Shown here one piece after another: positions 58,996 through 64,000 of a stretch of 64,000 bases of DNA. Positions within the stretch are counted from its first letter, which is position 1. Each line of letters opens with the position of its first letter. The stretch lies in the IMG/VR virus record IMGVR_UViG_3300020406_000408, positions 4,464 through 68,463 of that record; one strand, given 5' to 3'. The translations under genes were made by a program, and so were the position numbers. Below the pieces are notes generated by a model that was not told where the DNA came from, searched no databases, and worked only from the letters and a program-made list of their open reading frames with translations. Source of the DNA: a virus.

Positions 58996-59018
58996 GTGGT
59001 ATGAACCTTGGAGAAACA

Positions 59019-59861
59019 ATGAAAAGAATTAATTATTTAAACAACAAAGACATATTAGCAGAGATTCACAAGTCTAAATCATCGTTTTGTAGCTTTACGG
59101 ACAACGATTTTGCTGACTTTGATATAATATTACCTAGTGTGTCTAAAATAAATGTCCGTACAATAGCAGAAGCAAAAAGGAACAAGGCAAAAAAATTACA
59201 GCAAAAAGCATTTGAAAAGGCAAAAGAAAGTGGTAAAAGAGTAAAATTAGCAGAATTTGCTATTGATTATCGAAAAATAGAAAAAACGGACGTGATATTT
59301 AGGATTATGATGTATGATCATATTCCTGAAGAACCAGGACGTAAGAAAAATCCTAAAACAATAGCAGACACAAAAACAAAGGTAAATTTTCCTCCGTTCC
59401 AGCATTATAAATTTAATGACAATGGTGAACTTATTTGCGTAGGTAAAAGTCACTGGGAAGGCGGTATGGAAAATGGTAATTTTACTAAAGAAGGTGGTAA
59501 GGTAACAAATAAACTTGCTTTGATGTGGATGAAACTGTGTGATAGATATGCTACCCGTGGAAATGTAAGAGGATACACATATAATGATGAGATGCGTGGA
59601 CAGGCAATACTACAGTTGTCTCAGATCGGATTACAGTTTGATGAATCCAAATCTAATAATCCTTTTGCGTATTATACTGCGGCCGTGACAAATTCATTTG
59701 TAAGAGTTATTAATATAGAAAAAAGAAATCAAAATATTAGAGATGACATCTTAGAAATGAATCATATGAATCCTAGTTACACTAGACAGGCAAAAGGAGA
59801 ATGGGAGCGTCAACAGCGTGACCATAATTTAGCTACCCAAAAAGCCCAAAAAACTGATTGA
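59019..59861 (+). CDS. Late-transcription sigma factor, T4 gp55-like
   Basis: NYLNNKDIL, NVRGYTYNDEM, FDESKSNNPFAYYT and NSFVRVINIEK. A GGAGA RBS precedes the ATG at 59019; 59001 is an alternative start. Confidence 0.85.
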   Translation: MKRINYLNNKDILAEIHKSKSSFCSFTDNDFADFDIILPSVSKINVRTIAEAKRNKAKKLQQKAFEKAKESGKRVKLAEFAIDYRKIEKTDVIFRIMMYDHIPEEPGRKKNPKTIADTKTKVNFPPFQHYKFNDNGELICVGKSHWEGGMENGNFTKEGGKVTNKLALMWMKLCDRYATRGNVRGYTYNDEMRGQAILQLSQIGLQFDESKSNNPFAYYTAAVTNSFVRVINIEKRNQNIRDDILEMNHMNPSYTRQAKGEWERQQRDHNLATQKAQKTD

Positions 59862-59886
59862 CAAACTCTTAGTTTTCTATTATAAT
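59858..59886 (+). promoter_or_regulatory. Consensus sigma70 promoter TTGACA-N17-TATAAT
   Basis: TTGACA at 59858-63 and TATAAT at 59881-86, upstream of gp47. Confidence 0.85.
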
Positions 59887-59906
59887 GCTAGAGGAAGGAT
59901 TGTATT

Positions 59907-60917
59907 TTGTTTAAAAAAGCGGCGGTTTTTACTGATATCCATCTTGGATTGAAGTCTAACAGTAAAGTTCATTTACAGGATTGTGAAGAATTTGTAGATT
60001 GGTTTATCCAAAAAGCAAAAGATAACGGTTGTGAAACTGGAATATTTTGTGGAGATTGGCATCACAATCGAAATACTATTAATGTACAAACACTTGATAC
60101 TACAACTAGGTGTTTAGAAAAACTAGGTAAGGCATTTGAAAAGTTTTATTTCTTTGCTGGTAATCATGACTTGTATTACAAAGATAAACGCGATATCTAT
60201 TCGTTAGAGTTTGGTAAACACATTCCTGGTATTACTTACGTAGATGAAATATTACAAGAAGATGACGTTGTTCTTGTTCCTTGGTTAGTAGGTGAAGAAT
60301 GGAAACAGATTTCCAAGATCAAAGCAAAATATATGTTCGGTCATTTTGAACTTCCTAACTTCTATATGAATGCCATGGTACAGATGCCAGACACTGGTGA
60401 GTTGAAGGCTGAACACTTTAAGCATCAAGACTATGTATTTTCAGGACACTTCCATAAAAGACAGGTACAAGGAAAAATACATTATTTAGGAAATGCTTTT
60501 CCGCACAACTACGCAGACGCATGGGATGACAAACGTGGCATGATGATCCTTGATAAGGAAAACAACAAAGAACCAGTATATATAGACTGGGATGATTGTC
60601 CAAAATATAGAACTTTAAAACTCTCTAAACTGCTAGATGAAAAAGAAAAACTATTAAAAAGTAAAATGTATCTTAGAGTTACACTTGACTTACCTATATC
60701 ATACGAAGAAGCTAGTTTTATAAAAGAAACTTTTGTAAACGAATATGACTGTAGAGAAATAACACTTATTCCAAGTCAAAAGGATGAAGAGATACACACT
60801 GATATTGATATAAGCACATTTGAAAGTGTAGATCAAATTGTAACGAAGGAGATTACGGCAATTGATACTGAACAATATGATAAAAACACGCTGTTAAGGA
60901 TATATGACGAACTATGA
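59907..60917 (+). CDS. Recombination endonuclease subunit (T4 gp47 / Mre11 / SbcD)
   Basis: Metallophosphoesterase motifs TDIHLG, GDWHH, GNHD, GHFE and SGHFH. Confidence 0.92.
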   Translation: MFKKAAVFTDIHLGLKSNSKVHLQDCEEFVDWFIQKAKDNGCETGIFCGDWHHNRNTINVQTLDTTTRCLEKLGKAFEKFYFFAGNHDLYYKDKRDIYSLEFGKHIPGITYVDEILQEDDVVLVPWLVGEEWKQISKIKAKYMFGHFELPNFYMNAMVQMPDTGELKAEHFKHQDYVFSGHFHKRQVQGKIHYLGNAFPHNYADAWDDKRGMMILDKENNKEPVYIDWDDCPKYRTLKLSKLLDEKEKLLKSKMYLRVTLDLPISYEEASFIKETFVNEYDCREITLIPSQKDEEIHTDIDISTFESVDQIVTKEITAIDTEQYDKNTLLRIYDEL

Positions 60918-62692
60918 TAAAAATTAAGAGCCTTACAGTAAAGAATTTTATGAGTGTGGGTAATCAAACCCAAGCAGTTGACTTTGATAAACAACAATTA
61001 ACTCTTGTACTTGGTGAAAATCTTGATCAAGGCGGAGATGATATGGGTTCTCGAAACGGAACTGGAAAAACAACAATCATAAACGCATTAAGTTATGCTT
61101 TGTATGGTATAGCACTAACAAATATTAAAAGAAATAATTTAATTAACAAAACCAACAACAAAGGTATGTTGGTTACTTTGACTTTTGAAAAAGACGGCAC
61201 AGATTATAAAGTAGAAAGAGGACGTGGTCCTAATCTACTAAAATTTTTTGTTGATGATCAAGAGCAAGAAATGACTGACGAAAGTCAAGGTGATAGCCGT
61301 AAAACACAGGAAACAATAAATGAACTGTTAGGAATGAGTCATAACATGTTTAAGCATATACTTGCTTTAAACACATATACGGAACCATTCTTAAGCATGA
61401 AGGTAAATGATCAAAAGGACATTATTGAGCAACTGCTTGGTATAACAATACTTTCTGAAAAAGCAGAAACCTTAAAAGAAAAAATTAAACAAACTAGAGA
61501 TAATATTACAGAAGAAAACGCAAATATAAACGCCAAGCAACAGAGTAATGAAAGAATTAAAGAAACTATAGATAGCTTAAAGATAAAACAGAGTGCTTGG
61601 GAAACAAATAAAAAGACAAATCTTGAAAAATTACAAAGAGGTATACGTGAACTAGAACATCTTGACGTTGATGGTGAATTAGAAAAACACGAAAAACTAA
61701 AAAACTGGGAAGAACTAAACACAAGAATCAACACACTAAAGAAAGAAACAGCAACACTAGACTCTACATTGCTAAGAGCTAACAATTCAGTAGATAAAGT
61801 TAAAAAAGATATTGAAGAACTTGATAATGCTGTGTGTTATGCTTGTGGTCAAGAACTACAAGAAGATAAAGTAAAAGAAATAGAAAACAAAAAAGCCAAA
61901 GAATTAGAAGATGCTGTTTCTTATCAAAAAGAAATCACAGATAAATTATCCGAAGCAAACAATCAGCTTACAGAAATAGGTGATATAAATGGCCGGCCTG
62001 ATACTTTTTATGAAACTATCAAAGAAGTTTATGATCACAAACAAAATGTAGCACAACTAAAACAAGCATTCGAAAATAGTCAAAATGAAACTGATCCTTA
62101 TCAGGAACAAATTGATGATTTGACTAAAACAGGAATCCAAGAAGTTGATTGGACCACAATCAACGCACTCAATGATCTCAAAGAACATCAAGAGTTCTTA
62201 TTAAAACTGTTGACAAACAAAGACAGTTTTATACGTAAAAAGATTATTGATCAAAACTTGGCATACTTGAACAACAGGCTCACACATTATCTTGACAAGT
62301 TAGGACTTCCACATCAGGTTGTTTTCCAAAACGATCTAAATGTTGAAATTACACAGCTTGGACAGGATCTTGATTTTGACAATCTTTCCAGAGGTGAGCG
62401 TAATAGGTTGATTCTTGGTATGAGTTTTGCTTTCAGAGATGTCTGGGAGAGCTTGTATCAAAATATTAATCTACTGTTCATTGACGAGCTTGTTGATTCG
62501 GGTATGGATACTAGTGGAGTTGAAAACAGTTTAGCTATACTAAAGAAGATGGGAAGAGAACGTCATAAAAACGTTTATCTCATATCGCATAAGGACGAAT
62601 TGGTTGGTAGAGTTACACACGTACTAAAAGTAATTAAGGAAAACGGCTTTACATCATATGAAAATGACGTGGAAATATTTAATGAAAGATGA
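60914..62692 (+). CDS. Recombination ATPase subunit (T4 gp46 / Rad50 / SbcC)
   Basis: KNFMSVG, Walker A NGTGKT, Zn hook CYAC within a coiled coil, signature LSRGE, Walker B LFIDE and ISH. Confidence 0.93.
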   Translation: MIKIKSLTVKNFMSVGNQTQAVDFDKQQLTLVLGENLDQGGDDMGSRNGTGKTTIINALSYALYGIALTNIKRNNLINKTNNKGMLVTLTFEKDGTDYKVERGRGPNLLKFFVDDQEQEMTDESQGDSRKTQETINELLGMSHNMFKHILALNTYTEPFLSMKVNDQKDIIEQLLGITILSEKAETLKEKIKQTRDNITEENANINAKQQSNERIKETIDSLKIKQSAWETNKKTNLEKLQRGIRELEHLDVDGELEKHEKLKNWEELNTRINTLKKETATLDSTLLRANNSVDKVKKDIEELDNAVCYACGQELQEDKVKEIENKKAKELEDAVSYQKEITDKLSEANNQLTEIGDINGRPDTFYETIKEVYDHKQNVAQLKQAFENSQNETDPYQEQIDDLTKTGIQEVDWTTINALNDLKEHQEFLLKLLTNKDSFIRKKIIDQNLAYLNNRLTHYLDKLGLPHQVVFQNDLNVEITQLGQDLDFDNLSRGERNRLILGMSFAFRDVWESLYQNINLLFIDELVDSGMDTSGVENSLAILKKMGRERHKNVYLISHKDELVGRVTHVLKVIKENGFTSYENDVEIFNER

Positions 62693-63093
62693 TATTAGAT
62701 AAAATTAAAAATCGTGGTGAAGAAATGGCTCCGTTAGAAGGGCATGATAGATTACAGTATCTTATTGACATAGCTAGAGAAGTACCTCCTCTAGAAGACA
62801 AAGATAAAATAGACGAAAATAAAATCAGAGGTTGTGCTAGTAATCTCTGGGTAGTAGGAAAAGTCAATGAAGATGGAACAATGTCTTACAAACATGACGC
62901 AGATGCTTGGATAACGAAAGGCACAGCAAAAGTTTTGGTTGATCTATTAGATGGTGAACACCGTAGTGCTATAGCACAGCTGACCTTGGAAAGTTTTGAA
63001 GGCTTGGGAATTAGAAATCTTTTGACTATGCAGAGACAAGTAGGCTTCGGCAGTTTAGTAGAACGCATGATAGGAATAGCAAAGAATGCATGA
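62689..63093 (+). CDS. sufE: SufE-family sulfur acceptor (Fe-S cluster assembly)
   Basis: DRLQYLID, ENKIRGCASNLW with the conserved Cys, DADAWITKG and LTMQRQVG. Confidence 0.85.
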   Translation: MILDKIKNRGEEMAPLEGHDRLQYLIDIAREVPPLEDKDKIDENKIRGCASNLWVVGKVNEDGTMSYKHDADAWITKGTAKVLVDLLDGEHRSAIAQLTLESFEGLGIRNLLTMQRQVGFGSLVERMIGIAKNA

Positions 63094-63286
63094 TGACATA
63101 CATGATAAGCTAACCAAGGCATATATGGCATATTTCAAGGCAAATGAAGCATTTGAAGCAAGAAATTCAGTACGTACACACAGAGAGACTCGTAAATGGC
63201 TTCGTGAAATAAGATCTTTAGCAAAACAACGCATGGATGAAGTACACGATAGGCATAATTCCAAAAAGGACGTCCCAGAAGATTAG
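63086..63286 (+). CDS. Small basic helical protein, possibly histone-like Hc1-type
   Basis: RETRKWLREIRSLAKQRMDEV loosely resembles Hc1-like proteins; the ORF overlaps sufE. Confidence 0.4.
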   Translation: MHDDIHDKLTKAYMAYFKANEAFEARNSVRTHRETRKWLREIRSLAKQRMDEVHDRHNSKKDVPED

Positions 63287-63293
63287 GCTAGGG

Positions 63294-63299
63294 TAAGTA
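63294..63299 (+). promoter_or_regulatory. Putative late promoter variant TAAGTA, 5 nt before the ATG
   Basis: TAAGTAtccatATG. Confidence 0.45.
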
Positions 63300-63304
63300 T
63301 CCAT

Positions 63305-63727
63305 ATGCGATGGACTTACCAAGGTAAAGAAATAGAAGAATTACCCGAAGATGTAGAGGGATTTGTATATCTAATAACCAACAAGACCAACGATAAAAAG
63401 TATATAGGCAAGAAATTAGCCAAATTTAAGAAAACACGCCCACCACTCAAAGGCAAGAAAAACAAAAGAAGAAGCAAAGTAGAAAGCGATTGGCGAGATT
63501 ACTGGGGATCCTCAGATCATTTGATCGCCGACGTTGAAAAAATAGGACCAGAAAATTTTACAAGAGAAATATTGTATCTATGTCAAAGCAGAGGCTTAAT
63601 GAGTTATTTAGAGGCTAGGGAACAATTCAACCGCAGAGTGTTAGAAACTGATGAATACTACAACGGAATCATCAATGTGCGGGTAGGTAGTTCAAAAATT
63701 CTTAAAGAACAACTAAAAAAAATCTAG
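63305..63727 (+). CDS. Small GIY-YIG nuclease
   Basis: GFVYLITN.....YIGKK, YWGSS, FTREIL, the conserved Glu in YLEARE, and YYN. Confidence 0.8.
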   Translation: MRWTYQGKEIEELPEDVEGFVYLITNKTNDKKYIGKKLAKFKKTRPPLKGKKNKRRSKVESDWRDYWGSSDHLIADVEKIGPENFTREILYLCQSRGLMSYLEAREQFNRRVLETDEYYNGIINVRVGSSKILKEQLKKI

Positions 63728-63734
63728 GCAATAT

Positions 63735-64000
63735 AGGACGCTGTTTGATCGAGGAGGCTCGATCCGCTTTGAGGTGTAGACCAGAGCTACATCAGAACTG
63801 GCGTGTCCATTAAACTGTTGCTCCAAAAAACTCCTAGCAAAGGAACGAAGCGGGAGATAGCGAGATCCGCGAAGCGGTTGCGGTAGCAAAACCGGTTACG
63901 CAGATTTTCGTGATGTCGACGTAGGTTGGGAAAGGTCAGAGCCCATGGAGCAAGTCAAATACCTACTTCCGGTCTCGGCTGTGCGAACTCACATGAAGCT
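63735..64000 (+). ncRNA. Candidate large structured non-coding RNA, running off the window edge
   Basis: No ORF in the track and GC clearly above the background. Many stems and a crossing pair of long-range helices are visible. Strand is inferred from the flanking gene and G-U pairs. Confidence 0.6.

Follow-up and report, generated by a model that had tools for sequence, protein, structure and literature searches.

We analysed the last 64 kb (hereafter the window) of the 68,463-base-pair (bp) viral record IMGVR_UViG_3300020406_000408 and found that it ends inside the gene of a large structured RNA of a new class, absent from Rfam 15 and from the literature searched. The RNA element starts at position 63728, directly after a gene for a GIY-YIG nuclease, and the contig itself terminates at 64000. 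As an earlier note on this DNA had proposed, the window holds only the 5' part of the RNA, about 275 of about 420 nucleotides (nt) judged by its nearest complete relatives (L002 and L003), and the remaining ~145 nt are missing. Locus L003, which is 98% identical, shows ~420 nt of non-coding DNA (L003:2702 to ~3120), then a small - strand open reading frame (ORF) and the next + strand gene; in other subtypes the element reaches ~520 nt. The GC fraction rises from 0.28-0.41 over 59000-63699 to 0.47-0.52 over 63700-63999, and no + strand ORF of at least 40 aa is open in 63728-64000, where stops occur in all three frames, confirming the abrupt and ORF-free GC rise that the same note had described. 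We are confident that the element is a genuine + strand structured RNA gene. On its function we can be only tentative, and favour a stand-alone, stable RNA acting in trans, as a scaffold or decoy or as the core of an RNA-protein particle, that would work through two ACAUGA elements.

The fold was established by comparison of 110 distinct copies, which form two deep clades, A/C (to which the window belongs, as type A) and B/D, plus a few outliers. Its 5' domain consists of three helices, H1 and H2 enclosing H3, which we counted in a MAFFT alignment of 31 sequences that included the window. There, 93.9% of cells were paired, compared with 29-40% when the partners were slid by 1-3 columns, and 14 of the 18 pairs showed compensatory changes. 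For the core we used 56 A/C-type sequences, each less than 90% identical to the others, and 39 pairs in eight helices. Pairing reached 96.1% of cells (35-46% when slid), 18 of the 39 pairs were compensatory, and compensatory cells numbered 156 against 51 expected. For the 5' domain, the core and H6 alike, not one of 500 shuffles came up to the real alignment in paired fraction, in compensatory cells or in covariation score. MAFFT had offset H7, H8 and the GNRA hairpin by 1-3 columns between the two clades, which stood in the way of a single covariance model for all subtypes.

At the centre of the core, H4 (TTGCTCCA/TGGAGCAA) crosses H7 (GTAGGT/ACCTAC) to form an H-type pseudoknot, and a long-range helix, H6, closes the core (Table 1). 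The earlier note had called this pseudoknot probable, and it proved real: all five counted pairs of H4 are compensatory, and the helix passed an alignment-independent partner-swap test, anchored on the strand 5' of the A-run and the strand 3' of H8, in which at least 5 bp formed in 33/34 versions compared with 18% after swapping. Among the local stems that the note had listed, GATCGAG/CTCGATC (H1), GGTGTAG/CTACATC (H3) and TGGG/CCCA (H8, 63927-63945) are present and supported by covariation. Others did not survive: TCCT/AGGA clashes with the covarying CTCC/GGAG helix, and the suggested pairing of CCGCTTT with GAAGCGG is displaced by the covarying H2. The candidate stems CCGC-GAA-GCGG and CGGT/ACCG fall in a lineage-specific insertion that is missing from many relatives. 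The CTCC...GGAG hairpin has an inner G-C/C-G step and an invariant loop that includes GGAACGA. Beyond the contig end, relatives continue with a GNRA-type hairpin and a UUCG hairpin, then an A/T-rich spacer, and finally a GNRA-capped stem. Clade B/D has a second pseudoknot, absent from subtype A, between the loop of the variable hairpin and a segment after H7, with at least six Watson-Crick pairs in 10/14 versions compared with 12.5% when partners were swapped. We rejected a further candidate helix, H9 (CCG..CGG after H7), which has an A-C mismatch in most sequences.

The minimum free energy (MFE) of -80.4 kcal/mol is no better than chance, with z-scores of -0.05 for the + strand and -0.12 for the - strand, and the case for structure, drawn from aligned sequences, is comparative and not thermodynamic. 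RNAalifold run on the MAFFT alignment of all subtypes yielded only 17 pairs because the variable hairpins misalign, and automatic helix finding was swamped by clade-level differences.

We assigned the RNA to the + strand because of its G-U pairs and its UUCG and GNRA loops. G-U pairs are A-C mismatches when read on the opposite strand; they are frequent on the + strand, with 13 and 14 G-U cells in two pairs of H1 and an invariant G-U in H6, and the cUUCGg and GNRA loops appear solely in the + strand reading. The + strand also has the lower MFE in 98 of the 110 copies. Sampled words of the element were present at 76% or more in 14 marine DNA runs and at 25-46% in six metatranscriptome runs. In run X17 the summed contig depth was 83-105 on the core compared with 2-10 on the flanking genes, and in run X15 about 18-36 compared with 4-13; in both runs contigs are unstranded and relatives are pooled, and the parts of the flanks that RNA contigs leave uncovered are not evidence of absence. 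This depth is a weak sign of expression.

The element is widespread in uncultured marine phages. A search of viral contigs with the nuclease protein gave at least 600 relatives, of which the best 80 were taken, and an iterated nhmmer profile placed the element 3' of the GIY-YIG gene in 63 of the 64 non-redundant loci with at least 250 nt downstream. The earlier note had proposed to collect homologues behind orthologous nucleases and to test them for covariation; such homologues exist, and they covary. An exact 24-mer from the element led to 10 additional loci, all 10 with the nuclease. To avoid the bias of a nuclease-led search, we also scanned with two invariant RNA motifs as query. In viral contigs this nuclease-blind scan gave at least 120 matches, and 114 of the 120 listed were true by nhmmer. 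In 596 Gb of prokaryote genomes it gave 68 matches, five of them true, all on contigs of metagenome-assembled genomes (MAGs) that resemble binned phage DNA. These MAGs carry the labels Neomarinimicrobiota (L273, L278) and Crocinitomicaceae (L214, L263), with one archaeal (L260), and their contigs, which include ones of 335 kb and 153 kb, are probably mis-binned phage genomes. By blastn, two copies of the element matched none of 50,697 cultured-phage records. In all, more than 100 uncultured marine phage contigs keep the element, in a single copy in each record scanned (G003 and two MAG contigs by exact motif, G001 by profile).

The core is much more conserved than the adjacent proteins, and neighbouring nuclease proteins are only 75-85% identical. 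Like the window's record, 14 of the 80 related contigs stop inside the element (L004, L005, L008, L017, L026, L027, L035, L036, L037, L044, L055, L057, L071 and L074). Assemblers break at sequence common to co-occurring strains, and the invariant core is probably such an inter-strain repeat; therefore the RNA would often be truncated or missed in viral catalogues.

The motif (C/U)ACAUGA(A/U)G occurs twice as direct copies ~57 nt apart and is invariant within clades; the second copy lies past the contig end. The two copies change in step in separate lineages. Fifty-eight sequences pair ACATGAAG with ACATGAA[AG] (AAG with AA(A/G)) and 29 pair ACATGATG with ACATGAT[GA] (AUG with AU(G/A)). GCAUGA stands in both motifs of eight copies (GCATGATG twice in seven), AGAUAA in both motifs of two (AGATAATG twice) and GAAUAA in both motifs of L068. 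We searched the RNA for a segment complementary to the ACAUGA motifs and found none, and pairing of the motifs with each other through the CAUG palindrome fails in the AGAUAA and GAAUAA lineages. Because the two motifs change in parallel rather than in a complementary manner, their sequences suggest one shared partner.

On the reading we favour, the rigid pseudoknotted core would hold out the two identical single-stranded elements, which would bind two copies of one partner, either protein or RNA; such two-copy binding would explain why the elements change in step. The RNA would be a discrete + strand transcript of ~0.4-0.5 kb with its 5' end a few bases past GGCAATATAA, and the upstream nucleases (a GIY-YIG enzyme, or PDDEXK_15 with a small zinc-ribbon ORF) would be interchangeable occupants of a neighbouring slot and not obligate partners. 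Several points weigh against this proposal. The partner of the ACAUGA elements is hypothetical, and their parallel change could also reflect gene conversion between duplicated modules or pairing of two molecules. A ribozyme or a ligand-binding RNA, too, would be expected to have many invariant unpaired bases. A scan for sigma-70-like promoters upstream on the + strand found none, and no + strand intrinsic terminator occurs at the 3' end, where the terminal hairpin has no U-tail on that strand. MFE z-scores are near 0, and the 110 sequences share kinship, so that the shuffle statistics overstate independence. The terminal hairpin together with a T-run does score as an intrinsic terminator on the - strand in 3/3 loci scanned (L003:3093-3112 and its equivalents in L045 and L106), where it would be expected to halt transcripts from the oppositely oriented baseplate-hub gene.

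Comparison with known RNAs gave no family. At the gathering threshold Rfam 15 had 0 matches on the whole window and five loci; at E<=10 only chance matches to small nucleolar RNAs and microRNAs appeared on window 63200-64000 and the complete copy L003:2690-3420, and at E<=0.5 there were none on five other subtypes. The earlier note had asked for an Rfam search that included the next window; complete copies, searched here, left the RNA without a known family. ARAGORN, which looks for transfer RNA (tRNA) and transfer-messenger RNA (tmRNA), reported 0 genes in the window and six complete loci, and the tmRNA and RNase P models of Rfam were unmatched, in agreement with what had been read from the letters. 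RNase P RNA, tmRNA and the riboswitches and ribozymes of Rfam 15 are excluded by their unmatched models. The literature that we searched does not describe this RNA, which could however be among the more than 10,000 candidate viral RNAs in the supplementary tables of PMC10690425, outside that search.

Two affiliations suggested in the earlier note, to the GOLLD/ROOL class and to intron-type ribozymes, did not hold. GOLLD and ROOL are large ornate RNAs of phages and bacteria whose function is unknown. The element resembles them in being large, phage-borne, non-coding and highly structured, in having pseudoknots and GNRA loops, and in having come to light through comparative analysis without a known function. 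However, neither covariance model matched, and the element is smaller (~420-520 nt), has its own architecture, belongs to another host-phage group and has no tRNA genes nearby. The order of its elements, in which one strand of H4 leads through the A-rich linker to two hairpins and then to the second crossing helix, H7, recalls the group I core, where a P3-P7 double pseudoknot has an A-rich J3/4 and a P4-P6 hairpin pair; a nuclease gene next door is a further resemblance to group I systems. It differs in that H8 lies between the 5' strand of H7 and the 3' strand of H4, where group I has no hairpin, in that subtype A lacks a P8 equivalent, and in the absence of the conserved P/Q/R/S sequences. 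No group I or group II model matched, and the element does not interrupt a gene: its first bases coincide with the stop of the nuclease ORF, and the DNA that follows is non-coding, without exons. In L003 no + strand ORF of more than 52 aa occurs in the ~290 nt that separate the element from the ATG of the next gene. For comparison, the psbA gene of cyanophage S-PM2 reportedly carries an ORF-less intron with a neighbouring free-standing homing endonuclease, F-CphI.

A new ribozyme or ligand-sensing RNA, with the invariant junctions and double-pseudoknot core as active site or pocket and the ACAUGA motifs as part of it or as substrates, is an unlikely alternative. It would account for the more than 90 invariant columns among the 56 sequences of the core alignment, many of them in unpaired junctions, and the topology recalls a group I core by analogy. 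However, no Rfam ribozyme or riboswitch matched, there are no exons to splice, we recognised no conserved cleavage-site signature, and the downstream gene varies, so that there is no obvious regulated target. We consider improbable that the element acts in cis as a replication-origin preprimer or R-loop, by analogy with ColE1 RNA II or T4 oriF/oriG, with its transcript running into the A/T-rich spacer. That spacer (~20-90 nt, variable) does follow the UUCG hairpin, the element adjoins recombination genes, and ColE1 RNA II and the T4 R-loop origins likewise have a structured transcript, then an A/T-rich stretch and further hairpins. Known preprimers, however, have no need for such an invariant pseudoknotted core, and the element differs from them in its stronger sequence invariance and its pseudoknotted fold. 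In G001 (268 kb) it lies at 110.6-111.1 kb, which is not an extreme of cumulative GC skew; the nearest local minimum (~114-116 kb) falls where the genes switch strand, and the global minimum lies at the contig end. GC skew in T4-type phages mostly tracks transcription, and the skew of G001 leaves the preprimer idea neither supported nor excluded. Still more improbable, in our judgement, is a cis-regulatory leader or 3' untranslated region of a neighbouring gene, or an element acting as DNA (a protein-binding site or single-stranded DNA structure). The two direct repeats could be protein-binding sites on DNA, and the terminator-like - strand hairpin would suit such a role, but the flanking genes differ among loci, the element is found in RNA libraries, and the compensatory changes, G-U pairs and RNA-specific tetraloops point to a folded RNA.

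The nuclease next to the RNA invites two further explanations. Sixty-four real loci extend far enough upstream to show what precedes the RNA. In 57 of them it is directly preceded by the GIY-YIG gene, on the same strand, and in seven it is not. In L122, L161 and L153 a PDDEXK_15 nuclease (PF24608, PHROG 244) replaces it, followed in L122 by a small CxxC ORF; L094 and L172 have only the small CxxC ORF in the nuclease slot, and L120 and L106 have other genes. Nucleases at this syntenic site are thus sporadic and interchangeable, the site being filled by GIY-YIG, by PDDEXK_15 together with a zinc-ribbon ORF, or by neither. We found no PDDEXK_15 homologue in three records that bear GIY-YIG (one of 268 kb, 75% complete), and conclude that a single slot takes one nuclease or the other. 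The nuclease family matched in 780 cultured-phage records, none of which carries the RNA by the blastn search with two copies. The closest cultured GIY-YIG protein, from Methylophilales phage Melnitz (75% identity), follows ribonucleotide reductase genes and has ~150 nt downstream without the element. These results weaken the RNA-nuclease partnership that the earlier note had thought possible. That the RNA is partner or guide of a minimal nuclease, providing its target recognition, is the least probable of the explanations that we weighed: the nuclease is a catalytic domain only, and the RNA begins at its stop codon and accompanies it in most loci, but co-occurrence is not obligate, the family is found in cultured phages without the RNA, and the RNA varies most in hairpin stems, whose strands covary with each other. 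No variable guide-like segment stood out in alignments A1, A2 and A4, although no systematic target search was made. Alternatively, the RNA gene could be a landmark beside which selfish free-standing homing endonucleases settle, cutting the nuclease-free allele in or near the RNA. T4 Seg-type free-standing GIY-YIG endonucleases adjoin tRNA genes, as SegB does in a tRNA cluster, and here too a SegE-type gene stands directly beside a conserved RNA gene in a slot whose occupant varies among relatives. The count of occupants (GIY-YIG 57/64, PDDEXK_15 three, neither four), the absence of PDDEXK_15 from the three GIY-YIG-bearing records and the other, RNA-free context in Melnitz would all fit. The RNA here is not a tRNA, however, the GIY-YIG protein lacks a DNA-binding half, and homing is an analogy only; a selfish element would hardly be expected in as many as 89% of loci, the share that has the GIY-YIG gene, and PDDEXK_15 is annotated as resolvase-like at the syntenic place in Pseudomonas jumbo phage PA5oct and may be a housekeeping gene. 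We regard homing as unlikely. It would be compatible with the trans-acting RNA that we favour. The nuclease would then be tied to the RNA as a parasite, and what the RNA itself does would be a separate matter.

Few large RNAs are known to have complex folds that are conserved, and almost all the classes understood so far are ribozymes, ribonucleoprotein cores or sensors. We think it improbable, if worth stating, that large marine phages possess a new molecular machine with this RNA as its functional core, be it a new large ribozyme class or a recognition or scaffold RNA for domain-only nucleases; in the nuclease-helper version it would be the first RNA-assisted GIY-YIG/PDDEXK system. The core bases stay invariant across phages whose nuclease proteins have diverged, and the RNA is common in marine viral contigs and present in metatranscriptomes. 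At ~420 nt, and with its fold known, two candidate binding elements at hand and lineages that vary naturally, it offers a defined target in a poorly known group of large uncultured phages.

Table 1. The RNA element and the adjoining nuclease gene, in window positions
Feature	Position	Strand	Remarks
GIY-YIG nuclease ORF, 140 aa	63305..63727	+	PF19835 SegE_GIY-YIG, E 4.6e-36, residues 3-123; PHROG 447
5' boundary motif GGCAATATAR	63727..63736	+	at element start in most subtypes; overlaps nuclease stop codon
H1 hairpin GATCGAG/CTCGATC, 7 bp, 4-nt loop	63747..63764	+	100% paired, 3/7 pairs compensatory, 27 G-U cells
H2 CGCT/GGCG, enclosing H3	63765..63803 (63765-68 with 63800-03)	+	4/4 pairs compensatory
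H3 hairpin GGTGTAG/CTACATC	63773-79 with 63787-93	+	7/7 pairs compensatory
H4 pseudoknot helix TTGCTCCA/TGGAGCAA	63818-25 with 63946-53	+	5/5 counted pairs compensatory, 97.2% paired
Invariant A-rich linker	63825-63830	+	directly 3' of H4 5' strand
Hairpin CTCC/GGAG	63831..63856 (63831-34 with 63853-56)	+	3/4 outer pairs compensatory, 99.5% paired
Variable-length hairpin region	63857..63914	+	in relatives from a 2-4 bp stem with GNRA loop up to a branched ~60-nt insertion; the window has the latter
H6 5' strand GTCG	63915..63918	+	partner TGAC past contig end; 99.5% paired in complete relatives, both clades; 2/4 pairs compensatory
H7 GTAGGT/ACCTAC	63921-26 with 63961-66	+	2/6 pairs compensatory (U-A to G-C or C-G), 99.1% paired
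H8 hairpin TGGG/CCCA, invariant 11-nt loop	63927-30 with 63942-45	+	inside H7; 1/4 pairs compensatory, 100% paired
Motif 1 CTCACATGAAG	63988..63998	+	invariant columns in alignments A2 and A4; first of two direct copies

The element has a fixed place in uncultured marine large myoviruses, with gp47/gp46 recombination genes on one side and baseplate-hub genes on the other. In the window it is preceded by a + strand gene run from 59907 that encodes a gp47/SbcD-like phosphoesterase, a gp46/SbcC-like ATPase, a SufE-domain protein, a 66-aa ORF and, immediately 5' of the RNA, the 140-aa nuclease, which consists of the catalytic domain alone and had no match among sequences of the PDB. The SufE-domain gene (62689-63093, PF02657, E 6.2e-29), between gp46 and the nuclease slot, belongs to Fe-S cluster assembly and is an unusual auxiliary gene for a phage. 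The basic 66-aa ORF (63086-63286) matched no family; homologues of 97-111 aa occupy the same place, 5' of the nuclease slot, in L122 and L161. The small CxxC ORF (79-92 aa, with a CxxC...W(L/I)PK C-terminus) stops exactly at the 5' boundary of the RNA in GIY-YIG-free loci (L122:910-1149, L094 and L172) and matched no family in Pfam, PHROG or NCBIfam; GIY-YIG loci retain what resembles its last few codons.

The boundary motif GGCAATATAR may be a promoter or a 5'-end element. With 15 matches in the window against 12.2 expected, it is not a recurrent promoter motif there or in PA5oct. Copies of the L069 type and many A/C copies have a conserved AACGAAGTG just 5' of the 3' stem; CACTTC, which is complementary to it, stands further upstream within the A/T-rich spacer (A2 columns ~340-410), a complementarity that suggests a further optional hairpin.

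By gp46, the nearest cultured relatives are the PA5oct group of Pseudomonas jumbo phages, at 50% identity, and the gene order of PA5oct matches (late sigma, SbcD, SbcC ... resolvase-like ... baseplate hub). In the syntenic position PA5oct has an unannotated gap of ~660 nt that opens with the 11-mer GGCAATATAAG, the same as the start of the element and unique in the 287-kb genome (record 76521-76531; L281:5520-5531). A comparison of this gap with the element by nhmmer gave no homology beyond the shared 11-mer; the gap may possibly encode a counterpart of the RNA, diverged almost beyond recognition, in this cultured jumbo phage. The gap adjoins three annotated ORFs of only 38-50 aa each.

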